From NCBI GenBank assembly GCA_050251055.1, contig JBFWNL010000001.1:715825-779824 (forward strand): a DNA stretch of 64,000 bases, read 5' to 3'. The notes beneath the pieces were generated by a model, which ran no database searches, was not told where the DNA came from, and was given only the letters and a program-made list of their open reading frames with translations. This document shows, in pieces, positions 508-34,036 of this stretch. A program made the position numbers and the translations under genes. The stretch's first letter is position 1. Each line of letters starts with the position of its first letter. The stretch is from Bacteriovoracia bacterium (lineage in GTDB: Bacteria > Bdellovibrionota > UBA1018 > JBFWNL01).

Positions 508-1590
508 TTACCCCGACGACTTCGGAGAAACCAGATTTTTGCGGATAGCGCGCCACGTCTTGAGCACGGGGGCCGGCACGATCCGTTTCACCAACCGCGA
601 AGAGACGGGCCAGGCGTGGGAAGCCAGCGTCTCTAGCCACGCCCGCTTCCACGTCCGCCCAATACTTTGACTTAATGAGTCAGGCAATCCCGCCGCGCGG
701 GCCACCCGATCTAGGCGTAACGCTCGTAGCGCCAGGGGAAGCTTGGCCTCGAAGAAAGCCGGATCCCGCAAACTCACGTCGGCGACCGAGCCCAAGGCGA
801 TCTTCATTAAGGAATGCATAATATCGGACGCGAGGGGTTGCACGCGCGGATGCCGAAGCGCCGGTACAGCTTTCCGCACCAGGTTCGTGCCCGCTTGGCG
901 GCGAAGCTCCACATGCTGGTTGGCGAAGGAAAAAGACGTCGCGTGATCGCGGAACCAGGCCTGAGGTTTTTCGAAGTAAACGACCTCATCGACCGCGGTC
1001 GCGGCTTTCAAGAACAGCATGTACTCGCCGAAGAGCCCGCGACCCGCCGGGTGCTCGCTCACGTCTACGTAGCCGCCCAACTCGCGCAGCAGGTCGATCT
1101 CGTAAACCCCCATCGAACCGATCGCGGGAACACGATACGCCAGGGCGTCCGCCGCGAACCGCGCCGCGGGAATCCGGCGATATTCGCCGACTCCTTTCGT
1201 CGCGAGCGCTGGCGCGGGCCCGCCATGCCAAGCCTGGAAATTTCCGTATACGACCCGCGCGCCTTCGGAGATCGCACGGTGGGCGTTGGCCAAGAAAAAA
1301 GGCGCATAGAGATCGTCGTCGGCCAGCCAGGTGAAATACTTCCCCTGCGCGAGCTCGAGCAGGCGATTCATATTCCCCCACTCGCCCAAGTTCTTCGGAT
1401 GATTAATGATCCGAAAACGGTCGTCGCCCACCAGATCCAGGGCTTCAGGGGTCAGCGTGCGCGTGACGAGGTCGTTGCCAATGAGGACTTCGAAGTCCGT
1501 GAAGTTCTGGGCGCGGATCGACGCGATGGTTTCTTTCAAGAGCGCGAGGCGGTCGTAAGTGGTGACGCCGACCGAAAAGAAGGGGCTCAA
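508..1590 (-). CDS. GT2 family glycosyltransferase
   Basis: SVGVTTYDR...IASIRAQNFTDFEVLIGND, GKYFTWLADDD (DxD). TTG start at 1590 overlaps the upstream TGA; ORF track extends to 1626. Confidence 0.88.
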   Translation of the reverse strand: MSPFFSVGVTTYDRLALLKETIASIRAQNFTDFEVLIGNDLVTRTLTPEALDLVGDDRFRIINHPKNLGEWGNMNRLLELAQGKYFTWLADDDLYAPFFLANAHRAISEGARVVYGNFQAWHGGPAPALATKGVGEYRRIPAARFAADALAYRVPAIGSMGVYEIDLLRELGGYVDVSEHPAGRGLFGEYMLFLKAATAVDEVVYFEKPQAWFRDHATSFSFANQHVELRRQAGTNLVRKAVPALRHPRVQPLASDIMHSLMKIALGSVADVSLRDPAFFEAKLPLALRALRLDRVARAAGLPDSLSQSIGRTWKRAWLETLASHAWPVSSRLVKRIVPAPVLKTWRAIRKNLVSPKSSG

Positions 1591-2450
1591 AGCTTGTAGT
1601 TCCACCGGGAGGCGATCTCGCCGCAAACTTCGCGGAAGACCTTCTGGTGCAAGGGACCGAAGTGGTTCTGGTAATCCCCGACCACGCCCTTGCGAAACGC
1701 CACGTTGCCCTTTTCTTCGCTGCCTTTGCGCCGGCCCGTGAGGCTTTCAAACGAAAAAACTTCAATCGCTTCGTCGATCAAGGCGTCGGACGCCTCGAAG
1801 TCGAGGTATTTCAAAATAGATTTCAACGCGGCCTTCGGATCCGAATGCAATGACTCGTAAGTCACTTTGTACGTGATGGAGATCTGTTCCCAAGCCTCAT
1901 AGAACCCGCGCCAGCGCTTCGCCGTCACGTAGGCGTACGCGAGCTTGGAGCGTAAGAGCGACATCTTCAACGCCCGCAGGGGGTTCAAGCGCTCGCGTAG
2001 GCTGGGTCCCGCCACCGCGCCCGGGGCGTCGCGGCCGATCAGCATCGTTTGCGCGCCGGTTTCCACGTCGGTGCCCGTTTCGTTGCGCACGATCGCGCGC
2101 GCCTGGCCCGACACGGCCACGTCGCGCGGATCGCGCGCGAGCAAGATCACCTTATCGGTCAGGCTGAAGTACGGATCGGGAAGCTCGTGGGTCTTGATCA
2201 CCATCGAGTACTTCGTCTTCTCGCGTCCGGGCAGGTTGCCCTGCGTGAGCGCGAGCGCCTTCGCGTTGCTGGAAAAAATAATCCCGCGCAGGAAAGTATA
2301 AGGCTCGATGTAACGCGCGTTTAGGATGTAGCAAAGCATGTAGCTGAGCCATCCCTGTCCGGAGCGGCCAAAGTCGGCGATGAGGATCACGCGGTCGGAA
2401 CCGTTGAGGAAGGGATGCTTGACGTTGCCGGGCTTGTTCTCTCGAGTCAT
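1587..2450 (-). CDS. PAPS-dependent sulfotransferase
   Basis: 5'-PSB-like FGRSGQGWL, IKTH, 3'-PB RDPRDVAVS, YESL and C-terminal FRKGVVGDYQNHF motifs. Confidence 0.87.
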   Translation of the reverse strand: MTRENKPGNVKHPFLNGSDRVILIADFGRSGQGWLSYMLCYILNARYIEPYTFLRGIIFSSNAKALALTQGNLPGREKTKYSMVIKTHELPDPYFSLTDKVILLARDPRDVAVSGQARAIVRNETGTDVETGAQTMLIGRDAPGAVAGPSLRERLNPLRALKMSLLRSKLAYAYVTAKRWRGFYEAWEQISITYKVTYESLHSDPKAALKSILKYLDFEASDALIDEAIEVFSFESLTGRRKGSEEKGNVAFRKGVVGDYQNHFGPLHQKVFREVCGEIASRWNYKL

Positions 2451-5883: not shown

Positions 5884-7782
5884 TCAACTGCAGCTCCGGC
5901 TGCTGACCTTCGCTAAAATGCCTTCCAAAATTTCCAACGCCTCACGGAACCCTTGTCCGCGGTTCAGGTGCCCTTGCCAAATTTCCGGGATAAAACCGGT
6001 ATCTAGGCGATTCATGATCGCGAACAACGACGCGAAGTCGAGATCGCCTTGGCCGATCTGCACACCCTCGCCGGTCGAACCTTTCGAATCGGAAACATGC
6101 AGATAGGCGATGTGATCCAAGATGCGTTTCGTGAAGTCTTGCATGGAAATGCCGGCGTGGTGGCAGTAAAGGCCGGCGTGGGAGGTGTCGAAGCAAATCC
6201 CCCAACCCATGTCCTTCGCGAACTGGGCGATCTCGCCCGCGTCCATGAACACGGTGTTGTACCACTGACCGCCGAAGTACCAAGGCAGGGGGGGCATGTT
6301 CTCGACCAGGAGTTGCGTGCCCTCCGAAGGCATGGCTTCTAGGTTCTTCTTCAGAAGCTTATACTGATCGGTCTTATTGGATTCGGTCGGTTGGGCAAAA
6401 TGCCCGCCCGGATGCACGACCACGCGCGGACCGCGGGGATCTTTCATGCCCTTGAACTTGGGCGCGAGTTCACGCGCCAAATTCAACGTCCGCTTGAGCA
6501 TTTCGCGGCTGAGCTCGGTGATCGCGGCGTCGCTCGAGGTGAAGTCAATGAGCTGGTCCTTATAATACTCGGGCGCGTGCACGACTAAGTCTTGTTCGAA
6601 CGTTCCCGCCGGTAGCCTATAGTCTTCGAGGTCCCGCCAAGTCAGATGGATCTCCACCAAACCCGGCTTGACGTCCAAGAACTCCTGGAAGTCGTTCAGG
6701 CGCCCCACGATCCCCCACTTCTTGGGAATAGAATAGGTACGCGGCTTCGCGGCCGGTCCGTCGACGACATCCTGCCGGAAAATATAATCGTCCGCCGATA
6801 GGGCGCGATTCAGGGTCTTACCCAGGAAGTAATCAAGATCCATGGGCGAAACGCCCTTGGCCGGCGTCTTCGATGACAGATCGCCCGCCGTCAGCCGGTG
6901 GCCGACGGGCAGGTCCTTCGCCGCGACGAGCGACTTCGCCAAGCTGATGCGGTTATTCTTCTCGCCCTGGTTGTAAACCTTCTCGGCTTTGCCCAGGGAC
7001 TCTTCGGCGACACGGACAGCATCGACCATTTCCTTGAACTCGGTAAAATTGAGCGACGAACGATGATCGGGACCGGACTGGTTGCGGTCACGCGTGATGT
7101 GGCGCTCGATGATGTCGGCGCCCAGGCCCAGCGCGGCCACGGTGGGAACAAAGCCCTGCTCATGGCCGGAATAGCCCACCCGCACGCCCGTGATCTGGCG
7201 AAGCACCGGGATGTAGCGCAGGTTCAGATCGCTGAAGGAAGCGGGATAAGTGCTGTTACAATGCAGGAGCGCGAAATCCGCGCCGCGCGACTTGAGATAT
7301 CCGACGACCTGCTTGATCTCGGCTTCCTCGCTCATCCCGGTCGAGAGGATGATCGGGCGGTTGAACTCCGTGATCTTCTCGAGCAGCGGCCGGTTCGTGA
7401 AGTCGGGCGAACCCACCTTGAAGATCCCCATGCCGATGCCGTTCAGGAACTCGGCCGATTTGACGTCGAACGGCGTCGCAAAGAAATCGATGTCAAAACC
7501 TTTCGCGTACGCGAAGAGCTCCTTCATTTGATCGTAGCTAAGATGCGCCTTACGCAGCTCCGCCAGCAGGTACTGCGTCCCCTGCTCCGCTTTGCGCGAA
7601 TCGGCCAACACCTGCTTGGTATAGAGCGTGTCGAGATCCCGCAACTGGGTCTTCACGGCGTCGGCGCCAGCTTCCGCCGCACCCTTAATCAGCGCCTTGG
7701 CTTCATCCATGCTGCCGTTATGGTTAATTCCAACCTCGGCGATGATGTAGACGCCGCGCTTGGATTTATACCGGGTGCTCAT
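5884..7782 (-). CDS. NeuB-family nonulosonate synthase + SAF domain + C-terminal xylose-isomerase-like TIM barrel
   Basis: IIAEVGINHNG, GADAVKTQ, STGMS, LLHCNSTYPA, GYSGHE, IERHIT; SAF KSLVAAKDL; then VHAPE, VVHPGG, ENMPP, CFDTSH, HVSD, PEIWQGH. Confidence 0.9.
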   Translation of the reverse strand: MSTRYKSKRGVYIIAEVGINHNGSMDEAKALIKGAAEAGADAVKTQLRDLDTLYTKQVLADSRKAEQGTQYLLAELRKAHLSYDQMKELFAYAKGFDIDFFATPFDVKSAEFLNGIGMGIFKVGSPDFTNRPLLEKITEFNRPIILSTGMSEEAEIKQVVGYLKSRGADFALLHCNSTYPASFSDLNLRYIPVLRQITGVRVGYSGHEQGFVPTVAALGLGADIIERHITRDRNQSGPDHRSSLNFTEFKEMVDAVRVAEESLGKAEKVYNQGEKNNRISLAKSLVAAKDLPVGHRLTAGDLSSKTPAKGVSPMDLDYFLGKTLNRALSADDYIFRQDVVDGPAAKPRTYSIPKKWGIVGRLNDFQEFLDVKPGLVEIHLTWRDLEDYRLPAGTFEQDLVVHAPEYYKDQLIDFTSSDAAITELSREMLKRTLNLARELAPKFKGMKDPRGPRVVVHPGGHFAQPTESNKTDQYKLLKKNLEAMPSEGTQLLVENMPPLPWYFGGQWYNTVFMDAGEIAQFAKDMGWGICFDTSHAGLYCHHAGISMQDFTKRILDHIAYLHVSDSKGSTGEGVQIGQGDLDFASLFAIMNRLDTGFIPEIWQGHLNRGQGFREALEILEGILAKVSSRSCS

Positions 7783-11555: not shown

Positions 11556-13310
11556 ATGCCACGCATACACGAACTGACTCAGTTTTTAGGTAAAAAGACG
11601 CTTTGGCTCATGGTCATGGGCGTCTTCACCGGCATAACGCTATTTGGCATCGAAATTTTTTTCGCGCAAACGATCGACGTTTTCCTGCAGGCGATTGGCG
11701 GCACGCCGGTCGAGTCGATCGCCCGTTCTTTTCTCATCACCTGGCTCCCCTTAAACGGATTCACGAGCGTCTTGGTGTTACTCGGGACTTTGGGCGCGAT
11801 CCGCGGCCTACTCCAATGCGCGCAAGTTTACTTTCCCAGCCTCACGGCCGAAGAGCAACGCTTCGTCCATCGCGGTCGCGTCTTACACTGGGCCTTTCGC
11901 AGTCATTCCGCCAATAGCGGCGAGATCATGACTTTATTCAGCGATACGACTTCGGGCGCGGCGACCGCGATCTTGAGCGTACAAGCTTTGGCCGCCCTGA
12001 TTCCCGTCGCCCTGCTGCTCTGGGTAGGCTTGCTTCAGATCGCGATGATGCCTACCCTGATCGTCACCGGCTGCTTGGCGCTACTCGCGTTGGGGCTGAA
12101 GGCGCTCGATTCCATCACCCAACGCGCGGGCGTGCAGGTTGCGCGCGAAGGCGCCGCGATCAACGCCAACGTCCTGGCTAATATTAAAAACCTGCTGCTA
12201 ATGCAGATTTACGGGACCGAAGCCAAGGAAGCGAATCGCGTGGAGGCAAGCCTCGCGAACTACTATCGCCACAGTCATCTCCAGCTCGTGCTCATGAGCG
12301 CGAAGTACGCCATCCCGCAGATCTTCGGCGTCGTCCTCATCTGCATCATCACCGCGGCCGCGCTCCAAGGCCCGGATCGTCTACCGGCCGGCGTGCTGAT
12401 CGCCTATTTTTACCTGTTCGTGCGTTTCGTGCAGAACGTTTCGGAAATCCTGCGGCAGCTCTCTTTCATCGAATACTACAAGCCGCACCTCGTCCGCATG
12501 TTCGGCTGGTGGAAACAGAATGGGCAAGCCGCCCAAGCCTTACGGTTGGCGGTCCCATCCGCGCAGGTCCCTCCCCTACTCACCGGCCCGGGCGGCACGG
12601 GTTGGCGCCTTAAAGAGGTCGAGTTCCGCTATCCCGACGCGGCGGCTCCCGTGCTCCAAAAACTTTCGGCGGAGATCGCCCCGGGCGAAACGTTCGTGAT
12701 CGTGGGCCCTTCCGGATCCGGCAAGTCGACGCTCGTGTCTTTGCTTCTAGGTAACCTTCAACCCAGCTCGGGGGATGTGAAACTCGTCGTGAAAGACGAG
12801 AAAGGTACGGAAAACTTCCCGCTCGCCGAGGTGCGTGCTCGTTTCTTAAAAACCGTCGGTTACGTCGGTCCCGAGAGCTTCCTGCTCGCCGGCACAATCC
12901 TGGAAAACCTGACGTATGGTTTGGATCAGATGCCTAACCCCGCGCAGATTGAGCGCGCCCTGCAGACGGCGGAATGCCAATTCGTGTTCGAACTCCCCAA
13001 GGGCACGGCCCATCTGATTTCCGAGCAAGGCCAGGGGTTGTCCGCCGGCCAGAAGCAACGTCTCGCCCTGGCGCGCGCCCTCTTGCGTAATCCCACAACA
13101 CTGATCTTGGACGAGGCGACGGCGAATCTCGATCTCGAGACAGAACAACGGCTCGTGAACACTTTAAAGAAGCTCAAGCACAAGATGACCATCATCGGCG
13201 TCACGCATCGCCAAGCGCTGCTCGAAATCGCCGACCATACGTTGCGTCTGGAAGAATCTACTCAAACAGCGGGTGGCCCGCGGCCACGAATTCCCGCAAA
13301 AACTCTTTAA
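11556..13310 (+). CDS. ABC exporter, fused permease/ATPase (MsbA/PglK-like, possible glycan flippase)
   Basis: N-terminal TM helices; Walker A GPSGSGKST, signature LSAGQKQR, Walker B LILDEAT, H-loop VTH. Confidence 0.92.
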   Translation: MPRIHELTQFLGKKTLWLMVMGVFTGITLFGIEIFFAQTIDVFLQAIGGTPVESIARSFLITWLPLNGFTSVLVLLGTLGAIRGLLQCAQVYFPSLTAEEQRFVHRGRVLHWAFRSHSANSGEIMTLFSDTTSGAATAILSVQALAALIPVALLLWVGLLQIAMMPTLIVTGCLALLALGLKALDSITQRAGVQVAREGAAINANVLANIKNLLLMQIYGTEAKEANRVEASLANYYRHSHLQLVLMSAKYAIPQIFGVVLICIITAAALQGPDRLPAGVLIAYFYLFVRFVQNVSEILRQLSFIEYYKPHLVRMFGWWKQNGQAAQALRLAVPSAQVPPLLTGPGGTGWRLKEVEFRYPDAAAPVLQKLSAEIAPGETFVIVGPSGSGKSTLVSLLLGNLQPSSGDVKLVVKDEKGTENFPLAEVRARFLKTVGYVGPESFLLAGTILENLTYGLDQMPNPAQIERALQTAECQFVFELPKGTAHLISEQGQGLSAGQKQRLALARALLRNPTTLILDEATANLDLETEQRLVNTLKKLKHKMTIIGVTHRQALLEIADHTLRLEESTQTAGGPRPRIPAKTL

Positions 13311-15474
13311 TCGGCGGCGCGACCATGTGGGCCGGCACGCCCGCCGCGCTCAGGATCGCCTCGCGCACCTGGGTCGCGCTCAAAGACTCACGGCGCGAAG
13401 CCGGGTGAGCGCAACTCTCGGTCACTTGCCCACAATCCGCGCAGTAGTAAGCGGCTTCAAATAGGATCGGCTGGATGCCGATGTCGCCTAGTTTACCGAA
13501 AATTTCCTGGGAAGCGTTGGCGGAATAATAATTCCCGACGCCCGTGTGATCGCGGCCCACCACGATGTGGCTGCAGCCGAAGTTCTTGCGGCAGATCGCG
13601 GTGAAGGCGGCTTCGTGCGGGCCCGCGTAGCGCGGATACGTATTGAATACTCCCAAGACCGCCGGATACGGGGCATAGAGATCTTCCTTCAAGGCGACGT
13701 CATACGCGCCCAAGATCGCCGGCGCCGTGAAGTCACCCGCTTTTTTTGGCCCGATCACGGGGCTGATGAAGAGCGCGTCCGCGTTCGCGCGCTTGAGCGC
13801 CTCACGCTGGATAAAGAGATGGCCCGCGTGCACGATGTTGCGGGTATGGAACGCCACGATCGTCCGCCAGCCCATCGTCGAAAAGAGCTTGCGCGACTGG
13901 CGCGGAGTCAGAAAATGCGGGGACGGCGCGGCGGAGCGCTCGAACGCCCGGAAAACCTCGCCGCTGATAATAAACTTACCCTTATCCCGAAAAGCCGTGA
14001 ACCCGGGATGCTTCTGATCGTGGGTACCGAACCAGCGCTCGCCGACGGAGACGAGGTCGATCTCCTCGACGGCCGCGACTTTAAGGTATCCACAGGCACG
14101 CGCTTCCCCGGGCGCCTGGAGCGCAACCCATTGGCCCGCTTTCACCGCCGGCTTATCCACCGACTGCAGGAGAATCGGCATCGTCCAGATCTCGCCGCTC
14201 GCGCAGCGGTTATCGTCGACGACACGCGCGAGCTCGGCCGCGCCCATGAAGTGCTTAATCGGCGAATAGACGCCTTCCACGATCTGCAGGACGTCGAGCG
14301 CCGTGCGCTCATCGATCGCGAGCTTTGGCCAGGTGGCGGCATTCGCCACGGTTTGACCGGGCGGTGTCGGTTGCTCGACCAGCGTTCCTCCGTGGGGCGC
14401 GATCAATCCGCCGTCGGAGCTACTTCGAATGAATTGGAGCGTGGTCTGATCGCTCCCCGCTTGGACTTGACCCGCGTAGCTGCCCACTTCGCGGATCGTC
14501 TGGCGGATCATGCGTACCGATTCGACGGGGTACTTCCCGATCGCGGTTTCGGCGGCGAGCACCAAGCCCGAGGCGCCGTTTAAGAGCGTGTTGGTTACGT
14601 CGTTAATCTCGGCGCGGGTGGGCTGAAGATTGTTGAACATGCTTTCGAGGAGGTTCGTGGCCACATAAGTGGGCGTACCGGCCGCGGTCGCGCATTGAGT
14701 GATGTATTTTTGGGCAAGCCCGATCTTCCAGATGTCCACATCGCGCGAGAGGTCGCCGCGGTCGATGAGAATGGCGTCGCTGACGCCCAAGATCTCGGCC
14801 AAGTTGGCGAGCGCGGCCGTGCTTTCGACCTTTGAAATGATCGTGACGGGACAGCCGAAAAACTCGCGCAGCCACTTCACATCGGCGCCCCGAGAAGCGA
14901 ACGAAAACGCCACGTGTTTTAGCCCGTGCTGCTTGGCAATGGCGAGCGCGGCCCGGTCTTTTTCGGTGAAGGGCGGCAGTTCGACCAGACGGTCCAGGCT
15001 TACCCCTTTGTTGCTGCCCACTAACCCGCCCGCTAGCACGCGGCCGTGCGCTCCTTGAGCATCCACGGCCGTGACTTGAATCACCGCGGAGTTGAAATCC
15101 AGATGCAAGACATCTCCCGCATGCAGGAGCTGCGCGGGATCGATGGGATAAAGCGGGATCACGGAATCGGTGCCGGTTTCTTGCGCGCCGACGAACCGTA
15201 CGCTCGCTCCCCGCCTAAGGGTGGTGGTCCCTTCTCCCATACGGCCGGTACGGATCTGTGCGCCTTCGGTATCCACACAAAGGGGCTTCTTCGTCCACTG
15301 CGAGACGTTGCGGATAATCTCCGGCAGTTTCTCGGCCGGGGTGTGAGACATATTGATGCGAAAGACATCCACCCCTTCGCGATCCATCGCCTCGACTTTA
15401 CGGCGATCCATGGACGCGGGTCCTAGGGTCACCAGCAATTGAATATCGGCGGGCTTTTCTACCGGAAGCTTCAT
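13258..15474 (-). CDS. Pyruvate kinase - sulfate adenylyltransferase (Sat) fusion protein
   Basis: aa ~1-335 PK motifs (TLGPAS, RINMSH, SKVE, RGDL, PTRAE, ETAIGKYP); aa ~357-738 Sat motifs (PHGG, TRN..HAGH, YAGP.EA, KNFGCSH, GRDH.GVG). Confidence 0.9.
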   Translation of the reverse strand: MKLPVEKPADIQLLVTLGPASMDRRKVEAMDREGVDVFRINMSHTPAEKLPEIIRNVSQWTKKPLCVDTEGAQIRTGRMGEGTTTLRRGASVRFVGAQETGTDSVIPLYPIDPAQLLHAGDVLHLDFNSAVIQVTAVDAQGAHGRVLAGGLVGSNKGVSLDRLVELPPFTEKDRAALAIAKQHGLKHVAFSFASRGADVKWLREFFGCPVTIISKVESTAALANLAEILGVSDAILIDRGDLSRDVDIWKIGLAQKYITQCATAAGTPTYVATNLLESMFNNLQPTRAEINDVTNTLLNGASGLVLAAETAIGKYPVESVRMIRQTIREVGSYAGQVQAGSDQTTLQFIRSSSDGGLIAPHGGTLVEQPTPPGQTVANAATWPKLAIDERTALDVLQIVEGVYSPIKHFMGAAELARVVDDNRCASGEIWTMPILLQSVDKPAVKAGQWVALQAPGEARACGYLKVAAVEEIDLVSVGERWFGTHDQKHPGFTAFRDKGKFIISGEVFRAFERSAAPSPHFLTPRQSRKLFSTMGWRTIVAFHTRNIVHAGHLFIQREALKRANADALFISPVIGPKKAGDFTAPAILGAYDVALKEDLYAPYPAVLGVFNTYPRYAGPHEAAFTAICRKNFGCSHIVVGRDHTGVGNYYSANASQEIFGKLGDIGIQPILFEAAYYCADCGQVTESCAHPASRRESLSATQVREAILSAAGVPAHMVAPPIKEFLREFVAAGHPLFE

Positions 15475-16004
15475 ACGAAGGCCTCTCCACCCGAGCCGGT
15501 CGGCACCCGGCTCAACACGTGTTTCACCAAGGCTTGGCCGATCTCTTCACGCGATGTCTTTTCGGTGTCAAAAGTAAACTCCGGATTGGCCGGGACTTCA
15601 AAAGGGTCGTCGATACCGGTGAAATTCTTAATCTCCCCCGCCCGGGCGCGAAGATAAAGCCCTTTAGGGTCCCGCTGCTCACAAACCTCCAATCGGGTGG
15701 CGAGATAAACTTCCGTGAAATCTTTGCACATGCCCCGCACGGCCGCACGCGCTTCGGCATACGGCGAAATAAACGAAGCGACCACCACCACGCCGTGCTT
15801 CTCGAGCATGCTCGCCACGTACCCCGCGTACTTGATGTGCCGGTCGCGGTCAGTGCGCGTAAACGACGTTTCGGGAAACACCGCACGAATGGCATCCCCG
15901 TCGAGGTGCTCCACGCGCAGTCCCTTGTCCTTCAGTTGACCCGTAACATAAGTCGCCAGGGTCGTTTTTCCGGAGCCTGAAAGCCCGGTTAGCCAAACTA
16001 CCAT
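15471..16004 (-). CDS. cysC: Adenylyl-sulfate (APS) kinase
   Basis: WLTGLSGSGKTT, LDGDAIR, FISPY, RDPKGLY, NFTGIDDPFE. Confidence 0.96.
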   Translation of the reverse strand: MVVWLTGLSGSGKTTLATYVTGQLKDKGLRVEHLDGDAIRAVFPETSFTRTDRDRHIKYAGYVASMLEKHGVVVVASFISPYAEARAAVRGMCKDFTEVYLATRLEVCEQRDPKGLYLRARAGEIKNFTGIDDPFEVPANPEFTFDTEKTSREEIGQALVKHVLSRVPTGSGGEAFV

Positions 16005-16092
16005 TGTGGGCGGATATTAGTTTGGCGGCTTCGCCCTCGTCAAGCTTGGAAATCCTTGAGTTTTCCCAGGGTTTCCCAGATGATGACGCTCC

Positions 16093-16620
16093 ATGAAGTT
16101 TATTGAGTCGCCACTCACGGGCGTGTGGACCATCGAAGCCGAGACCTTTCGGGACGAGCGCGGGTCGTTTTCCCAGGTCTTTCTGACCGAGGAGTTCAGG
16201 CAACATAAACTCGAGACCGAGTTCGGCCAGTGGAGCCTTTCGGACAACGAGATCCGGGGAACGCTTCGCGGGATGCACTTCCAGAAACCTCCGTTCGCCC
16301 AGGGCAAGCTGATCCAATGCGTACGTGGGTCTATTTTTGATGTCGCGATCGACTTGCGCGAAGGTTCACCCACTTTCCGAAAGTGGTGGGGAACCGAAAT
16401 CAGCGCGAAGAACAACCGCATGCTGCACATCGCGCCCGGCTTCGCCCATGGTTTCATCACGCTGGAAGATCACACCTGCGTCTACTACCATCTGTCGAAG
16501 ACCTACACGCCCGATAGCCAGAGCGGGATTCGCTGGGATGACCCGAAGATCGGCATCCATTGGCCGCTGAATCCCACGCGTGTTTCGGATCGCGATCGCG
16601 CGTACCCGTTGCTCAAGTAG
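16093..16620 (+). CDS. rfbC: dTDP-4-dehydrorhamnose 3,5-epimerase
   Basis: DERGSF, GTLRGMHFQ, QGKL, DVAIDLREGSPT, GFAHGF, IRWDDP. Confidence 0.95.
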   Translation: MKFIESPLTGVWTIEAETFRDERGSFSQVFLTEEFRQHKLETEFGQWSLSDNEIRGTLRGMHFQKPPFAQGKLIQCVRGSIFDVAIDLREGSPTFRKWWGTEISAKNNRMLHIAPGFAHGFITLEDHTCVYYHLSKTYTPDSQSGIRWDDPKIGIHWPLNPTRVSDRDRAYPLLK

Positions 16621-17830
16621 TTCCGAGTTGATCGATCAGATAGTCGGCGATCGCAAGCGACGCCGTTGCTCCAGGGCTTGGCGCATTCAGTAGATGAAGC
16701 GCGCGCTCGGCTCTTTCGATACGAAAATCTTGAATCAACTGACCGCTCCCATCCATCGCTTGGGCGCGGATGCCGGAGTGCCCGGCTTCCAAATCTTCGG
16801 GTTGGATCTCCGGGACGAGTCGCTGCAACGCCCGACAAAACGCCGACCGACTGAGCGATTGCTTCAGCTCTGAAGCGATCATCGCGCGATGCCGACTGGC
16901 GAACCGGTATAACCCCGAAAAAAAAACCGCCTCTCCGAAATCCGCCAAATTGAAATCGCGCTTCCCGTAGCCTTCCCGCGCGAGCGACAAGATCGCGTTC
17001 GGCCCCGCATCGAGCGATCCGTCGATCCGACGGGTGAAATGCACGCCTAAAAAAGGAAACTTTGGATCTGGCAGTGGATAAAGGAGATGCCTCACCAGAT
17101 GCTTACGCGATTCCTTCACGCGGAAATAATCACCGCGAAACGGGACGATTCGTACCGCGGGCTCCAAGCCCGCCGAACGGGCCACCCGATCACATTGCAA
17201 TCCCGCGCAGTTGATCAGATGCGAAGCGCGAAAATCCCCGCACGTGGTGGCGACTACGTGGCCGTGGCCGGCACCGGGCCGCTCCCGGTGGAAACCACGT
17301 GCTTCGGCGCCGACGATCACCTCGCCCCCGGCCTCGCCGATCTTCTGGGCCAAACGACTCGCGACTTCGCGATAGTCCACGATACCCTCCTCGGGAACGT
17401 GCAGGGCACCCAGTCCCCGAGCGTGGGGTTCGATCTCTCCGATCTCCTCCGCCTGGAGCAGCCGCAAGCCGCGCAGCCCATTCTGCTGACCGCGCTCCAT
17501 CGTCGCGGGCAGGCGGGCTAGCTCTTCGGAGGTCGTGGCTACCATCAGTTTTCCGCAGATTTCGTGGGGAATCGAATTTTCGCGACAGAACTCGACCATC
17601 TGACGGACGCCATTGACGGCGAGCCGGGCCTTTAACGAACCGGGCACATAGGAAAGACCGGCATGGAGCACTCCGCTGTTATGCCCCGTCTGATGTTGGC
17701 CTACTTGAGGTTCTTTTTCGAGGACGCGCACGAAGGTGGCGGGATCACGCCGCTGCAGGCGATAGGCGGTGGCCAAGCCAATGATGCCACCCCCTATAAC
17801 TGCCACCGACCGACTCAAGCGCGTATCCAC
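16613..17830 (-). CDS. lhgO: L-2-hydroxyglutarate oxidase-like FAD oxidoreductase
   Basis: IGGGIIGLA, HQTGHNSGVLHAG, GSLKA, PFRGDY, PFLGVHFT, GPNA, GIRAQA, NAPSPGATAS. Confidence 0.9.
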   Translation of the reverse strand: MDTRLSRSVAVIGGGIIGLATAYRLQRRDPATFVRVLEKEPQVGQHQTGHNSGVLHAGLSYVPGSLKARLAVNGVRQMVEFCRENSIPHEICGKLMVATTSEELARLPATMERGQQNGLRGLRLLQAEEIGEIEPHARGLGALHVPEEGIVDYREVASRLAQKIGEAGGEVIVGAEARGFHRERPGAGHGHVVATTCGDFRASHLINCAGLQCDRVARSAGLEPAVRIVPFRGDYFRVKESRKHLVRHLLYPLPDPKFPFLGVHFTRRIDGSLDAGPNAILSLAREGYGKRDFNLADFGEAVFFSGLYRFASRHRAMIASELKQSLSRSAFCRALQRLVPEIQPEDLEAGHSGIRAQAMDGSGQLIQDFRIERAERALHLLNAPSPGATASLAIADYLIDQLGTT

Positions 17831-27470: not shown

Positions 27471-30400
27471 CTAGCTTAACGGAGTAACCCTAAAATCGAT
27501 TTGCGGTCTAGGGTGCCGATGAAGTGCCCGTAAGAAAGCCGTTGCCTTTTCAATATCGGTAATCAACGCGCAACCGAATTGAACCGCCGTCCGGCGCACC
27601 AGAACGTCCCGGCGGATTTCCGAAGGATCGAAGTTCTTCGGCACATTGATAACCAGATCTACTTGCTTCTTCTGGATGATCTGCCCGGCGTCGATTTCCC
27701 CCGGGCGGCCCTCCCCTGGCCAGGGAACGCTCATCACCTCATAACCTTCACCCTTAAGATGCCGGGCGGTGCCCGGGGTAGCGTAGATTTTGACGTCCAG
27801 TTTCCTGAGAATCTCCATCACCGACAGGAACTTCCGCTTCTCCTCCGCCGTACCCGAGCTCACCAGCACTCCTACTTTGGGCCTCCGGATGCCGGTCGCC
27901 TGCAATGCCAATAAGAGCGCTTCATCCAAATCAGCGCCTACGCAACCCACCTCGCCAGTAGAAGTCATTTCGACGCCCAGAACGGGATCGGCTCCGGCTA
28001 AACGATTGAAGCTGAACATCGCAGCCTTCACCCCAATCCGTTCGGACTTCGTGGGCGGCACGGCTGGGGACCTTCCGATCAGGACATCGGTCGCGTACTG
28101 CGCTAACGGAATTTGCGTCACCTTGGAAACGAACGGAAAGGACCGCGAAGCGCGGGCATTGCATTCAATGACCAAAAGTTCGCCGGCTTTGTGCATGAAC
28201 TGGATATTAAACGGCCCGTTCAGCCGAAGCTGCGCGCAAATACGCTCGCCCGCGTCTAAAATCCGCACACGCGTCGCTGGGTCTATCTTCTGCGGAGGCA
28301 GAACCAGGGTCGCGTCGCCCGAGTGAATACCTGCGTTCTCGATATGTTCACTGACCACGGCGGCGATCATGCGTCCGCTCTGTGCGACGCCATCTAACTC
28401 GAGCTCGATGGCGTCGGTAATGAATTCGGACACCACCACGGGATGCTCGGCGGAAACATCCGCAGCAAGCGAAAGCGCCCGCTCCAACGACGGCCAGTCG
28501 TAGACCACGTTCATCGCGGCGCCGGAAAGCACGAAGCTCGGACGCACGATGACGGGGAAACCGGCCTTATCGATAAATGGCTTGATGTCGTTCAGCTGGG
28601 CCGCCGAGATCCAACGAGGCTGACGAACTTCGGCCTTATCCAGGATATCGGAAAAGATCTGACGGTCCTCCGCCCGGCGAATGGTCTCAGAGTCGTGACC
28701 CAGTATGCGAATCCCCGCAGCCGTCAACGAAGCAGCCAGGCGGTTCGGCAGCTGGCCGCCCATGGAAACCACCACTCCAGTCGGGGTTTCCAGATCAGCG
28801 ACATCCAGCACGCGCTCGAAGCTCACCTCGTCGAAGTAGAGGCGGTCAGAGCTGTTGTGGTCCGTCGAGACGGTTTCCGGGTTACAATTGAGAACCACAC
28901 TGCGCCAGCCCTCCGCGCGAAGTCTCTGTGAGCACTCCACCGCACACCAGTCGAACTCCACGCTGGTGCCGATACGATAGGTACCGCTGCCGAGTACCAA
29001 CGCGGTCTCAGACTTGCCGTCGGACGCCACCAGGTCATTGAATTGTCCCCCGTACGTCAGATAAAGGTAGTTCGACGTCGAAGGATACTCGGCCGCGGTG
29101 GTATCGATTTTCTTCACGACCGGCGCGACACCCAAAGCTTTGCGGCGCCGGCGCAAAATCAAGGATGCCTCCCGGATCTCGGTTTCGGTTGGCATGTCCG
29201 GGCCGGTGCGGAGATAAATCCCGGCTATCTGCTCGTCGCTGAAACCCGCAGATTTCCAGCAGCGCCATTGGTCGGGTGTGACCCCGACGAAATCCAGAGC
29301 GAGGTCACCCGTCACCCGCAATGCTTGGAGATCCCGTTCGATCGCCACGATTTTTTCCAGCGAAGCCAGGAACCATTTGTCGATTCGAGTGAGCTCGAAT
29401 ATCTCTTCGCGCGGATACCCGGCCCTGAAGGCTTGCATCAGCTCCAGCAGACGATTGTCCGTCGCGATCTTCAGGCTCGCGAAAAGCTCTCCGCGCTCCT
29501 TAAATTTCTGCGGCAAACTGAGGCCTTCGGGGCGCTCGGTGACCATGCGAAAGGCTTTCTGCAAGGTCTCCGGAAACGACCGACCGATGGCCATGACTTC
29601 GCCGACGGATTTCATCGCGGAACCGATCGTGCGGTCGGCGCCCCTAAACTTCACTAGGTCCCACCGGGGGATCTTGACGGCAATGTAATCCAGCGCGGGC
29701 TCGTAGAATGCCTTAGTCACGCCCGTGACCGGATTGGTCAACTCGAGTAAGGTATGGCCCAACACGACTTTTGCCGCGATCGCGGCGATGGGATAGCCGG
29801 TCGCCTTGCTCGCGAGCGCGCTCGAACGGGACAGCCGTGCGTTCACTTCGATGACGAAAAATTCCGACGAATCGGGGCTGAGCGCGTATTGAACGTTGCA
29901 CTCACCCAGGATCTCGAGGTGCTCGGCGATACGGAAGGCCGCGTTCCGCAGGCGTTGATACTCCTCATCGTCGAGGGTCTGACTTGGGGCCACGACGATG
30001 GAGTCGCCGGTGTGGATCCCCATCGGGTCGAAGTTCTCCATGTTGCAGATCGCGATCGTGTTACCGGCTGTGTCGCGCATGATCTCGTATTCGATTTCCT
30101 TCCACCCACGCAGCGATTTCTCGATCAAGACCTGGGGCGAGGACGCGAGCGCGCTCTCCACGAGGCGGCGAAGCTGCGTTTCGTCTTCCGCAAACCCGCT
30201 GCCTAACCCACCCAAGGCGAAGGCCGCTCGGCAAATCACCGGAAACCCGATGGCGCGTCCGGCGTCCAGTGCCTGATCGACCTCGGTGACGACCGCGCTG
30301 GGTGGCACCGGGATCTCGATCTCGCGCATGGCTTTCGCGAAGAGATCCCGGTCCTCCGTGATGCGTAGGGACCCGAGATCCGTGCCCAGATTGCGCAAGT

Positions 30401-30752
30401 TATAGCGAGAAAACATCCCTTGTTCTTCCATCTTAATGGCGCAATTAAGGGCCGTCTGGCCGCCAAAACCGGCGACGACAGCGTCCGGTTTCTCGGCCTG
30501 GATCACCTTCTCGACCCATTCCGGTTCAACGGGGTAAAGATAGACTTTGGTATGAGGGCGCTGGTTCGTCTGCACCGTGGCGATATTCGGGTTCACGATC
30601 ACCACGTCGATGCTCTCTTCGTGAAATGACTTCAGTGCTTGCGTGCCGGAGTAATCAAACTCCCCGGCTTGCCCGATGGAAAGCCCGCCGGAGCCTAAGA
30701 GCAGGACCTTAGGCCTTCGTCCGAGCTCAAGGAGCCAAGGATGCGCGGGCAT
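27471..30752 (-). CDS. carB: Carbamoyl-phosphate synthase large subunit
   Basis: [53 protein letters not shown], second ATP-grasp, MGS domain; ATG 30752 follows gagga. Confidence 0.96.
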   Translation of the reverse strand: [1093 protein letters not shown]

Positions 30753-31860
30753 GCGTCCTCGCTTCTTCAACAAAATCCCGGACAATCCACTCCGTGTCGC
30801 GAGGGCCGCCGGCCGCCTCCGGATGGAACTGCACCGACCGGAACGGCTTGGTGCGATGCTTAATGCCTTCGATGGTCCCGTCGTTTACGTTCTCAAACCA
30901 GGTTTCCCATTCGGAGGTCGCAGAAGTGTGCTCGATAACAAAGCCATGATTCTGGCTGGTCATGAACCCACGGTCCGTGCCGGTAAGCCGCACGGGCTGG
31001 TTGTGGCTGCGATGCCCATAAGGCATACGAACCGCACGTCCGCCGGACGCGAGCGCCATGATTTGATGGCCTAGGCAAATCCCGAGTACGGGACGTGTCC
31101 CGCTCAGCAAAACCCGAACCCGAGCGACGAGATCGCCCGTTTTCACCGGATCCCCGGGCCCGTTGCTCAGTATCCAAGCATCGCAGTCGACCGTACTGAA
31201 GTCGGTGTCCCACGGTAGCAGCTCGATTTCGCAGTCGGCCTGGCTCAAGAGCTGGCGGACGATGTTCCACTTCACGCCACAGTCTATTACCGCGAGCTTC
31301 AAGTTCCCGCTGCCTAAACGTACGCGATCTTTTCGCGACACGGAAGGGAGCAGATTGGTGCCCGTCGGATTGTAAAAACCGTCGCGGGAATAAAAAGCCG
31401 TCGCTTCGGTAGCGCCTTCCGGCTCGATCCGCGCCAACACGGTCCCTTGGCCGCGGATGATATGAACAAGCTGGCGCGTATCTACGCCCACAATCCCGGG
31501 ACAATTCTGGGACCGGAGCCATTCGTCCAGCGACTCCAAGCTGCGCCAATGAAAGGCGTCCGTGCAGTCGCCATGCACGACGACCGCGGACGCGTGGATG
31601 CGCTCGCTCTCGAATGCCCGTGATCCGGTTAAGCCGGTATTTTCGGGGACCCCGTAGTTACCGATCATCGGATAGGCAAATACGAGTACCTGGCCGTAAT
31701 AAGAAGGGTCGGTGAGGGTTTCCGCATAACCCACCATGCCGGTCGTAAAAACAAGCTCCCCGCTGGAACGCAAAGGCGCACCGATACTCCAGCCCTCAAA
31801 GGAGTCCCCCGTGGCCAAAGTCAGTCGGCAGGGGCTACGTTTTAGCGAATCTCGTTGCAT
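30727..31860 (-). CDS. carA: Carbamoyl-phosphate synthase small (glutaminase) subunit
   Basis: GELVFTTGMVGY, TDPSY, GNYG, LSNGPGDP, GICLGHQ, SQNHGF, QFHPE. Confidence 0.96.
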   Translation of the reverse strand: MQRDSLKRSPCRLTLATGDSFEGWSIGAPLRSSGELVFTTGMVGYAETLTDPSYYGQVLVFAYPMIGNYGVPENTGLTGSRAFESERIHASAVVVHGDCTDAFHWRSLESLDEWLRSQNCPGIVGVDTRQLVHIIRGQGTVLARIEPEGATEATAFYSRDGFYNPTGTNLLPSVSRKDRVRLGSGNLKLAVIDCGVKWNIVRQLLSQADCEIELLPWDTDFSTVDCDAWILSNGPGDPVKTGDLVARVRVLLSGTRPVLGICLGHQIMALASGGRAVRMPYGHRSHNQPVRLTGTDRGFMTSQNHGFVIEHTSATSEWETWFENVNDGTIEGIKHRTKPFRSVQFHPEAAGGPRDTEWIVRDFVEEARTHARASLAP

Positions 31861-32200: not shown

Positions 32201-34036
32201 ATGAAAATTATCGGAATCTCTGCCTTTTATCACGATAGTGCAGCGGCCCTGATCAAGGACGGCGAGATCATCGCGGCCGCCCAGGAAGAGCGCTTCACGC
32301 GCAAGAAACACGACGCGGGTTTCCCAAGCCACGCCCTCGAGTATTGCCTTGCCGAAGGCAAGCTACGACTGGAAGAAATCGACTACGTGGCTTTCTACGA
32401 CAAACCGCTCCTCAAGTTCGGCCGCCTCTTTCAGACGTACTTGGCCTTCGCGCCTCGCGGTTACGTTTCGTTCCGCAAAGCCATGCCGCTCTGGATGGGC
32501 GAGAAGGTCTTTCAGAAGAAGATGATCCAGGACGAGTTCGCGCGCCGGGCGCCTAAGCTGGACGTCGAAAAGAAACTCCTGTTTTCCGAGCATCACCTCA
32601 GCCACGCCGCGAGCGCCTATTACCCGTCTCCCTTCGACGACGCAATCATCCTAACGATGGACGGCGTGGGGGAATGGGCCACGACCTCGTTAGGCCGCGG
32701 CACCGGAAATAAGATCGAGATCTCCAAGGAGATCCATTTCCCACATTCACTGGGCCTGCTCTATTCGGCGTTCACTTATTACACCGGCTTCAAAGTGAAC
32801 TCTGGCGAGTACAAAGTCATGGGGCTCGCGCCTTACGGCGAGCCTAAGTACGCTCAGAAGATCTTCGATCACCTGATGGATCTGAAGTCGGACGGCTCGT
32901 TCCGGTTGAACCAGGAGTATTTCGACTATTGCACCGGCCTACGCATGACGAACGAAAAGTTCGAACAACTCTTCGGCTTGCCCACCCGTAAGTCGGAAGA
33001 CCGGCTGAACCAGGAACACATGGATCTAGCGGCCTCCGTTCAACACGTGACGGAAGAAGTGGTCTTGCGCCTCACCCGCACGGCGGCCAAGGAAACCGGC
33101 GTCGCGAACCTGTGCTTGGCCGGCGGCGTGGCGCTGAACTGCGTGGCCAACGGAAAAGTCCTGCGCGACGGAAAGTTCAAAAATGTTTGGATTCAACCCG
33201 CGGCCGGTGACGCCGGCGGAGCGCTGGGTGCCGCGCTCGCCGCCCATCACCTGTACTTGAAACAGCCCCGCAAGAGCGATGGCCCCCTGGACCGGATGCG
33301 CGGATCTTACCTCGGACCGGAGTTCGCTCAAGCCGATATCGAACGGCGACTCAAAGAAGTGGGCGCGAAGTTCAAGGTCCTGAATGAATCGGAAATCATC
33401 GAAGCCTCGGCCCAGGCTTTGGCGGATGAAAAAGCCATCGGTTGGTTCCAAGGACGCATGGAGTTCGGCCCGCGCGCGCTGGGCGGACGCTCGATCATCG
33501 CGGATGCCCGCTCGCCGAAGATGCAATCGGTCTTGAACCTGAAAGTGAAATACCGCGAGTCGTTCCGCCCGTTCGCGCCGTCCGTCTTGCGCGAAGACGT
33601 GGCCGATTGGTTCGAGATGGATTGCGACAGCCCGTACATGCTGCTCGTCGCCGACGTGAAAAAAGCGCGCCGCCGGGCCATGACGGAGGCGGAGCAGAAG
33701 CTCTTCGGCATAGCCAAGCTCAACGTGCCCCGCTCCGATGTTCCGGCCGTGACCCACGTGGACTATTCGGCGCGCGTGCAGACGGTGCACAAACAGACGA
33801 ATGGCCGTTACCACGCCCTGATTTCATCGTTTAAAAAGAAAACGGGCTGCCCGGTGATCGTGAACACGAGCTTCAACGTTCGCGGCGAACCCATCGTTTG
33901 CACCCCGGAGGACGCCTTCCGCTGCTTCATGGGCAGCGAAATCGATACCCTCGTGGTGGGCAACTGCTTCCTTTCGAAAGAAGACCAAGACCCCGCATTG
34001 AAGTTGAACTACAAGGACGCCTTCGAGCTCGATTAG
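32201..34036 (+). CDS. O-carbamoyltransferase (NodU/CmcH/SxtI family)
   Basis: GISAFYHDSAA, QEERFTRKKHD, HHLSHAASA, DGVGE, EYKVMGLAPYG, GGVALNC, EFGPRALG.RS, FRPFAP, NTSFN. Confidence 0.96.
   Translation: MKIIGISAFYHDSAAALIKDGEIIAAAQEERFTRKKHDAGFPSHALEYCLAEGKLRLEEIDYVAFYDKPLLKFGRLFQTYLAFAPRGYVSFRKAMPLWMGEKVFQKKMIQDEFARRAPKLDVEKKLLFSEHHLSHAASAYYPSPFDDAIILTMDGVGEWATTSLGRGTGNKIEISKEIHFPHSLGLLYSAFTYYTGFKVNSGEYKVMGLAPYGEPKYAQKIFDHLMDLKSDGSFRLNQEYFDYCTGLRMTNEKFEQLFGLPTRKSEDRLNQEHMDLAASVQHVTEEVVLRLTRTAAKETGVANLCLAGGVALNCVANGKVLRDGKFKNVWIQPAAGDAGGALGAALAAHHLYLKQPRKSDGPLDRMRGSYLGPEFAQADIERRLKEVGAKFKVLNESEIIEASAQALADEKAIGWFQGRMEFGPRALGGRSIIADARSPKMQSVLNLKVKYRESFRPFAPSVLREDVADWFEMDCDSPYMLLVADVKKARRRAMTEAEQKLFGIAKLNVPRSDVPAVTHVDYSARVQTVHKQTNGRYHALISSFKKKTGCPVIVNTSFNVRGEPIVCTPEDAFRCFMGSEIDTLVVGNCFLSKEDQDPALKLNYKDAFELD

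Follow-up and report, generated by a model that had tools for sequence, protein, structure and literature searches.

A pyruvate kinase–ATP sulfurylase fusion adjoining cysC: a candidate module for phosphoadenosine phosphosulfate supply, widespread in uncultured bacteria

Why would a bacterium join a pyruvate kinase to an ATP sulfurylase in one polypeptide? The question is raised by a gene in the 64,000-nucleotide stretch of DNA analysed here (the window), which comes from contig JBFWNL010000001.1 of a Bacteriovoracia bacterium assembly (GCA_050251055.1; 3.77 Mb, 93.5% complete). There, an open reading frame (ORF) of 738 aa (P0001; 13258–15474, minus strand) encodes a pyruvate kinase (PK) barrel followed by an ATP sulfurylase (Sat), immediately behind cysC, the gene for adenosine 5′-phosphosulfate (APS) kinase. 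Sulfate activation is energetically uphill, and the known solutions are a pyrophosphatase, fusion to APS kinase and the GTPase CysN. The answer that we consider reasonably probable is that the PK–Sat protein is a supply module for 3′-phosphoadenosine 5′-phosphosulfate (PAPS), in which PK would return the ADP released by CysC to ATP for the benefit of a sulfotransferase encoded in the same glycan cluster. Specifically, the Sat half would convert ATP and sulfate to APS and pyrophosphate (PPi), CysC would phosphorylate APS to PAPS with release of ADP, and the PK half, without an allosteric C-terminal domain, would convert phosphoenolpyruvate (PEP) and ADP to pyruvate and ATP, with the PAPS passing to the clustered sulfotransferase. 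The net reaction, ATP + PEP + sulfate → PAPS + pyruvate + PPi, would halve the net ATP cost; more importantly, ADP would be kept low at APS kinase, avoiding a dead-end enzyme–ADP–APS complex, and loss of the allosteric domain would release PK from glycolytic effectors. An excerpt of a report on in vitro PAPS synthesis states that PK and PEP were required, that without them ADP built up and PAPS was nearly absent, and that the authors attribute this to a dead-end enzyme–ADP–APS complex of APS kinase (PMC9885120).

Pfam profiles place the PK barrel (A and B domains) at residues 12–320 (14515–15441, minus strand; PF00224, 200.1 bits against a cut-off of 30, profile positions 5–328 of 328), PUA_2, the N-terminal domain of ATP sulfurylase, at residues 358–507 (13954–14403, minus strand; PF14306, 96.9 bits), and the ATP-sulfurylase catalytic domain at residues 522–728 (13291–13911, minus strand; PF01747, 208.2 bits, profile positions 5–211 of 212). 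Residues 321–357 (14404–14514, minus strand) form a helical linker free of Pfam matches at the point where PK_C, the PK allosteric domain, would normally begin. Pfam detected neither PK_C (PF02887) nor an APS kinase domain in the 738-aa protein and, judged by domain order, the Sat module is in the position of the PK allosteric domain. The translation holds the motifs DTEGAQIR, IDRGDL, ATNLLESM, PHGG, HTRN..HAGH, GRDH and C..C....C.H. The first gene of this two-gene unit is cysC (15471–16004, minus strand), the 177-aa product of which matches APS_kinase (PF01583, 173.2 bits) and TIGR00455 (187 bits against a cut-off of 138.7), and carries a GLSGSGKTT P-loop at its N-terminus. The minus strand at the junction reads GCC TTC GTA TGA AGC TT, in which the TGA stop of cysC and the ATG start of PK–Sat share the 4 nt ATGA (15471–15474, minus strand), an overlap that suggests translational coupling of the two genes. 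A promoter and terminator scan of 12900–16700 returned one promoter-like site, just 5′ of cysC (16043–16014, minus strand), where 1.2 would be expected by chance, and so provides no evidence for a promoter. An earlier sequence-only reading of the window had described a single ORF with a PK barrel and then a Sat domain, the latter in place of PK_C, starting 4 nt inside the cysC stop, and in all of these respects it was borne out.

That two adjacent genes were wrongly joined during assembly or gene calling is next to impossible given the homologues. The window does derive from a metagenome-type assembly, and the two landfill-metagenome runs with matching Logan contigs may be its source; these contigs nonetheless cross the junction and the cysC overlap with zero differences (X1 record 1, 16,319 bp, spans 12800–16084, and X2 record 8, 33,106 bp, spans 12800–16400), bridging the 14400–14480 segment for which the sequence-only reading had sought spanning reads. 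Among the runs listed for this stretch, none was of RNA. Since the two runs may be the source samples, the stronger evidence is the occurrence of the same continuous protein in independent assemblies. Among the homology-search matches listed, all 119 protein clusters besides the window protein possess PK, PUA_2 and ATP-sulfurylase domains without interruption (42–53% identity, 84–100% coverage, mostly 711–782 aa). In addition, a species-level scan (one genome per species, 185,579 species) yielded 569 pattern matches, 527 of which encode a relative, and locus counts out of 80 given here refer to the best 80 of these 527 related loci, all from metagenome-assembled genomes (MAGs) or single-cell genomes. 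In 80 of 80, the match starts no later than query residue 14 and ends no earlier than residue 726, and a single ORF of 655–959 aa covers it in 79, the exception being a locus with no single ORF called (L078). The long ORFs of L037 and L065 hold the same three domains only, behind an upstream extension. The same three families also occur in 10 of the 30 nearest ESM Atlas clusters. The independent homologues, species-genome loci and bridging contigs lead us to reject an artefact, and an AlphaFold2 model of PK–Sat (mean pLDDT 89.0, pTM 0.74) is likewise confident across the linker, which contains helices at 316–339 and 342–350 (pLDDT 73–87). No PDB entry found by Foldseek spans both halves (template-modelling (TM) score by query ≤0.49), and a complex prediction for PK–Sat with CysC gave a score of 0.00, that is, no answer, which counts neither for nor against a complex. 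The family is widespread rather than rare, with up to 527 species genomes encoding it, which corrects the sequence-only reading. The record names of relatives include Patescibacteria, Bacteroidota/Ignavibacteria, Planctomycetota, Omnitrophota, Verrucomicrobiota, Alpha- and Deltaproteobacteria, Bdellovibrionota, Marinimicrobia, Chloroflexi, Actinobacteria, Elusimicrobia, Acidobacteria and one Woesearchaeota.

The proposed scheme depends on two working active sites, and an alignment of 11 fusions with the canonical PK of the window genome (505 aa, 28% identical), subsequently extended to 30 fusions (42–53% identity to the window protein), provides an opportunity to inspect both. In the PK half, R39, N41, S43, H44, D68, R75, K156, K215, E217, D241, T273 and E309 are invariant in the 11 fusions and the canonical PK, and in the 30 fusions; this set comprises the ligand positions for PEP, Mg and nucleotide as well as the catalytic ones, and we take their rabbit-muscle equivalents to be R72, N74, S76, D112, R119, K206, K269, E271, D295, T327 and E363. 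The NK motif of the B domain is also invariant across fusions and canonical PK. The general PK model TIGR01064 scores 242.6 bits, below its cut-off of 306.4, with only profile positions 5–339 of 476 matched because the C domain is missing. Several deviations are conserved within the clade to which the PK half belongs, namely DTEGAQIRTG (DLQGPKIRVG in the canonical paralogue), ATNLLESM and VLAAETA (LAAETA). The sequence-only reading had taken such deviant motifs as the sign of a specialized subfamily; they are conserved across the clade, which a branch (SH-aLRT 97) sets apart from canonical PKs.

Two solved enzymes, those of Methanothermococcus thermolithotrophicus (8a8d; 231 bits) and Thermus thermophilus (1v47; 225 bits), can be aligned with the Sat half from one end to the other, and Foldseek gives TM-scores by target of 0.93 to 8a8d_A and 0.92 to 1v47_B. 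The scores of the Sat half fall below the NCBIfam cut-offs (NF003166, 318.1 against 387; TIGR00339, 247.2 against 322.95), by which measure it is a divergent subfamily. Four ATP-sulfurylase motifs are named in an excerpt of one paper: QXRN, HXXH, the GRD loop and PFR (PMC6607087). HXXH is present as HAGH (549–552), with H549 and H552 invariant in 30 fusions, and the GRD loop as VGRDHTG (639–645; VGRDHAG in the canon), with G640, R641, D642, H643 and G645 invariant and the A-to-T change found in 143 of 161 proteins. QXRN, however, is replaced by HTRN (543–546), in which R and N are kept and Q becomes H, and the PFR position reads PILFE compared to PIFFR in 8a8d, although 1v47 also lacks PFR there. 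Unfused Sat genes beside stand-alone short PKs carry FQTRNP. The change from Q to H is a second amendment to the sequence-only reading, insofar as the Sat half deviates as well as the PK half. At the level of motifs, both halves nevertheless look catalytically competent, and a dead PK or dead Sat half is rejected at that level for the window protein by the catalytic motifs kept.

Further clues to function come from the relatives of the PK half, for which an exhaustive search returned 13,821 matches; the top 150 comprise fusions of ~730 aa, proteins of 324–358 aa with nothing beyond the barrel, and variants with a different tail. A quick maximum-likelihood tree (IQ-TREE) was built from 107 PK regions, with every fourth fusion plus P0001 sampled, leaving out rows whose PK match did not span profile positions ≤12 to ≥315 and short rows ending in PHG(G/S), which are cut fusions. 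The SH-aLRT 97 branch parts 10 canonical PKs and two odd rows from 95 short, fused or variable-tail rows and, on this tree, the PK half groups with other PKs devoid of the C domain in a clade of their own. The window protein falls in a 100%-supported group of 31 rows, 30 of which are full fusions. Fused and unfused forms interleave elsewhere, and the well-supported branches require at least eight changes of fusion label, indicating repeated fusion or fission. Members of the clade occur alone beside sulfotransferases, as PK–Sat, with both Sat and APS kinase in either order, and as PK–APS kinase. An APS kinase domain is present in 8 of the 268 proteins of the PK-related set: four are PK–Sat–APS kinase (P0002, P0206, P0222 and P0228), two are APS kinase–PK–Sat (P0024 and P0114), and two are PK–APS kinase without Sat, as confirmed by Pfam (P0184, 505 aa, 147.8 bits; P0240, 533 aa, 167.7 bits). 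The latter two fall in separate regions of the PK tree and so probably arose independently. The joining of PK directly to the one ADP-releasing enzyme of the pathway is the strongest single argument for ADP recycling.

The stand-alone PKs point in the same direction. A metagenome scan with these forms gave 80 loci, many on very short contigs, of which 34 contain a PK ORF of ≤410 aa. Within five ORFs of the PK (the range for neighbour counts unless stated otherwise), 21 of these 34 loci have a sulfotransferase, CysC or CysQ; individually, sulfotransferase-type genes occur in 16, CysC in 6, TauE in 4 and CysQ in 2. One locus (L150) has a canonical Sat gene directly upstream of the short PK, and five (L100, L102, L105, L113 and L126) have separate Sat and CysC genes a few kb away. 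In other relatives, the PK is intact and followed by a decayed Sat-like tail that has lost HTRN, HXXH and GRD (P0125, P0154, P0185, P0220, P0135 and P0160) and matches the ATP-sulfurylase profile only to about position 120 of 212, with 25–45 bits. Others have PUA_2 only after PK, P0128, P0136 and P0142 belong among the intact-PK relatives with either a decayed Sat-like tail or PUA_2 only, and P0143 has a CBS domain after PK. Since intact PK persists beside decayed Sat tails, PK is what stays constant in the clade, and a non-catalytic role for the Sat-derived module is suggested as well; the decayed tails may be pseudo-enzyme regulatory domains.

These observations bear on whether the PK half might itself be non-catalytic, serving as a PEP sensor or an oligomerization scaffold in place of other Sat assembly domains and leaving all chemistry to Sat. 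Such a role would suit a PK without its own allosteric domain, and there are precedents for pathway enzymes that became regulatory domains: in fungal ATP sulfurylase, the APS-kinase-like C-terminal domain is regulatory, and the fungal structures 1i2d and 1m8p are among the matches. We nonetheless regard a purely regulatory PK as very unlikely; its catalytic positions are invariant in 30 fusions and kept in stand-alone and variable-tail forms, and the half that decays is Sat, with the PK motifs retained (in P0125, P0154, P0185, P0220 and others). Apart from the clade, the ESM Atlas structure matches include, in row 5, a cluster of 61 proteins (881 aa, mostly Chloroflexota) in which ATP sulfurylase is joined to a type I phosphodiesterase/nucleotide pyrophosphatase, possibly a product-removing fusion partner.

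If PK–Sat supplies PAPS, the genome should be consulted for what the PAPS is used for. The window genome's only ATP-sulfurylase match is PK–Sat, its only APS_kinase match is the adjacent CysC, and its only Sulfotransfer_1 gene lies in the glycan cluster (1587–2450, minus strand; PF00685, 63.8 bits), encoding a 287-aa presumed PAPS user where the sequence-only reading had placed a sulfotransferase. No member of the PAPS_reduct family (CysD, CysH) was found in the genome, at 93.5% completeness, and one inositol-monophosphatase/CysQ-family gene lies outside the cluster. Given this gene complement, sulfation is the only evident use for PAPS, and sulfate activation in this genome thus appears to serve PAPS-dependent sulfation only. 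The organism is probably incapable of reductive sulfate assimilation and would have to import reduced sulfur. A second PK gene in the genome is canonical and has a C-terminal extension (505-aa ORF, 353 bits).

The survey of architecture and co-occurrence that the sequence-only reading had proposed reveals the same association elsewhere. A CysC homologue is found in the flanks of 43 of the 80 loci, and in 35 of 80 it is less than 100 bp from the fusion on the same strand, downstream of it in 31 and upstream in 4, the window being of the upstream type. Within five ORFs, CysC was counted at 38 loci; ORFs were called as the longest non-overlapping frames, which mis-called some neighbours, and the cysC of L018 was missed in this way and detected by tblastn. 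Sulfotransferase types neighbour the fusion in 31 of 79 loci, plus 4 after scanning cluster c33, with the sole indication of background, which is not a formal rate, being PF00685 matches in 2 of 14 control genomes. At L050, the gene after the fusion (12166–14382, plus strand) encodes another 738-aa protein, with an N-terminal APS kinase (132.4 bits) and ~580 residues without a Pfam match.

Several observations weigh against a PAPS-supply module with ADP recycling, and three of them concern the active sites. First, of 154 fused proteins, 153 have H at the QXRN position whose Gln contacts sulfate. Second, DTEGAQIR in the window protein differs from the canonical D(T/L)xGP(E/K)IR near the site for nucleotide and monovalent cation. 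Third, an excerpt of one study gives T113/K114/E117/T120 for K+-dependent PKs and L113/Q114/K117/(L,I,V)120 for K+-independent PKs (PMC8835810), whereas the window's D-T-E-G-A-Q-I-R-T corresponds to T113/E114/Q117/T120, its Q117 fitting neither signature. Across the PK clade, T/S-E-A/S-Q is the prevailing form. These clade-conserved substitutions by the nucleotide/cation site (T-E-G-A-Q compared to T/L-x-G-P-E/K, with ATNLLESM and LAAETA) could mean that the PK half transfers phosphate to a different acceptor or from a different donor, such as another pathway nucleotide or nucleoside diphosphate, and forms no ATP from ADP. We attach little credence to this, however, as the residues for PEP/pyruvate and Mg are unchanged, the NK motif of the B domain is invariant, and PK chemistry targets a terminal phosphate rather than a ribose hydroxyl. 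Nor is a kinase step missing, since APS kinase is found in 78 of 80 genomes (43 in the flanks, 35 elsewhere); substitution of PK for an absent APS kinase is rejected on the same count and by the APS kinase adjacent to PK–Sat in the window.

Other opposing observations concern the genomes. The flanks of 37 of the 80 loci have no cysC; a strong APS kinase is encoded elsewhere in 35 of those 37 genomes, while in the remaining MAGs, of completeness not known, none was found in G014 and only a marginal match in G001. Furthermore, of 50 genomes with the fusion, 21 (again MAGs of completeness not known) yielded no match to PK_C, and nine of these are 0.5–1.0 Mb in size; the PK_C-less set consists of G038, G040, G042, G044, G046, G047, G049, G050, G051 and 12 others. 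In such genomes, the fused PK may be the housekeeping or only PK. This is evidence for an ordinary glycolytic PK, active and fused to Sat for co-regulation or stoichiometry without ADP recycling, and serving as the only PK of small genomes; public sources also name many members simply 'pyruvate kinase'. We judge a glycolytic role unlikely: the window genome and 29 of the 50 others retain a canonical PK, the PK_C absences come from MAGs whose completeness is not known, and glycolysis does not predict clade PKs beside sulfotransferases or fused to APS kinase alone. Finally, the bulk ATP/ADP ratio might make local recycling needless, the benefit being argued from in vitro work only. The claim of the sequence-only reading that an unregulated PK recycles ADP for PAPS fits all of the comparative evidence found; PK activity on ADP and PEP, the ATP-recycling role and any physical hand-over between active sites are what we infer.

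Beyond PK–Sat and cysC, the neighbouring genes are consistent in character. The window fusion lies in a glycan/nonulosonic-acid biosynthesis cluster (508–27288, delineated by Pfam scans) that includes GT2 glycosyltransferases (GTs), methyltransferases, epimerases/dehydratases, NeuB, a DegT aminotransferase, a CMP-sugar cytidylyltransferase, an ABC exporter, an RmlC-like epimerase and further GTs. This composition matches the families that recur beside fusions in other genomes: GT1/GT4 (19 loci), NDP-sugar dehydratase/epimerase (18), DegT aminotransferase (16), CMP-sugar cytidylyltransferase (9), UDP-GlcNAc 2-epimerase (9), NeuB (8), ABC exporter (8), CysQ-type PAP phosphatase (8), TauE (6) and sulfatase (5). 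The sulfatase lies directly downstream of the fusion in five alphaproteobacterial loci (L044, L067, L075, L077 and L079; PF00884, 132.9 bits for the scanned L067), sharing the strand of the fusion in L044 and lying on the other strand in the remaining four. Three further features of the window deserve mention. The ABC exporter gene (11556–13310, plus strand) converges with PK–Sat such that their 3′ ends overlap by 53 nt (13258–13310). An unusual NeuB fusion of 632 aa (5884–7782, minus strand) joins NeuB, with SAF, to a xylose-isomerase-like TIM barrel (AP_endonuc_2). Adjoining the glycan cluster are genes for the large (27471–30785, minus strand) and small (30727–31860, minus strand) subunits of carbamoyl-phosphate synthase, followed by a carbamoyltransferase (32201–34036, plus strand), and the glycan may thus be carbamoylated.

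A further interpretation, which we consider doubtful, is that the clade is an undescribed and widespread class of PK dedicated to sulfation, in which the Sat-derived module replaces the allosteric domain and, as the decayed tails suggest, would gate PK so that PEP is spent only during sulfate activation, with ATP passing straight from PK to Sat and CysC within a single assembly. If so, sulfate activation would be PEP-driven and largely uncoupled from the adenylate pool of the cell, and the relatives with intact PK that lack HXXH and GRD would be pure regulator forms. The PAPS-supply module that we favour would, if correct, have consequences of its own. A built-in PK would constitute a fourth, unreported solution to the uphill step, widespread in uncultured bacteria including small-genome Patescibacteria, and the functionally specialized clade would bear on annotation, as its members, at present called 'pyruvate kinase' or 'sulfate adenylyltransferase' at random, may enter metabolic reconstructions wrongly as glycolytic PK. 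The supply of PAPS is a cost bottleneck in the enzymatic sulfation of glycosaminoglycans and drugs, for which the natural single-chain PK–Sat and PK–Sat–APS kinase enzymes would be candidates for PEP-driven PAPS generation. A full-text literature search, with subscription journals and supplements outside its scope, found no description of a PK–ATP sulfurylase fusion or a sulfation-linked PK. The enzymes themselves are known; the architecture and the putative functional coupling appear new, widespread and uncharacterized.

How does PK–Sat compare to the systems that it resembles? Canonical PK (PF00224 with PF02887) shares the full A/B barrel and all catalytic positions common to both, and the PKM2 chain 3u2z_B superposes on the window PK half with a root-mean-square deviation of 3.3 Å over 342 columns (Foldseek); the window protein differs in having no C-terminal allosteric domain, in its separate clade and in the T-E-G-A-Q signature. 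The short C-domain-less PKs of NF005234 (a 352-position model) likewise end after the barrel, and the window PK half matches positions 3–333, but with 143.5 bits against a cut-off of 564 it belongs to another family, and its own clade is tied to sulfation genes. Bifunctional Sat/APS kinase (NF004040; solved as 2gks) also fuses enzymes of sulfate activation and has the same Sat fold, with PUA_2 and catalytic domain in the same layout; the relatives in which APS kinase accompanies both PK and Sat, listed above, provide a link to it. It differs in that the fused partner in the window is a PK barrel, with APS kinase in a separate overlapping gene, and HTRN takes the place of QXRN; the window protein scores 171.6 bits against the NF004040 cut-off of 669. 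CysDN, the GTPase-coupled Sat, follows the same logic of attaching the uphill APS step to an energy-delivering partner, often together with APS kinase (CysNC). In many of the genomes that carry the fusion, APS-kinase matches fall in open frames of ~630–700 aa, as would be expected for CysNC. However, CysDN is built from unrelated families (CysD is PAPS_reduct-like, a family absent from the window genome as noted above, and CysN is a GTPase), and its coupling is mechanistic, through GTP hydrolysis, whereas that of PK–Sat would be substrate recycling. Closest in purpose is laboratory PAPS synthesis, which, as described in an excerpt of that work, combines the same activities (Sat, APS kinase and PK with PEP) with the same aim of removing ADP and restoring ATP (PMC9885120). 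Whereas the laboratory system is an engineered mix of separate enzymes, PK–Sat, as known from sequence, is a natural polypeptide in an operon.

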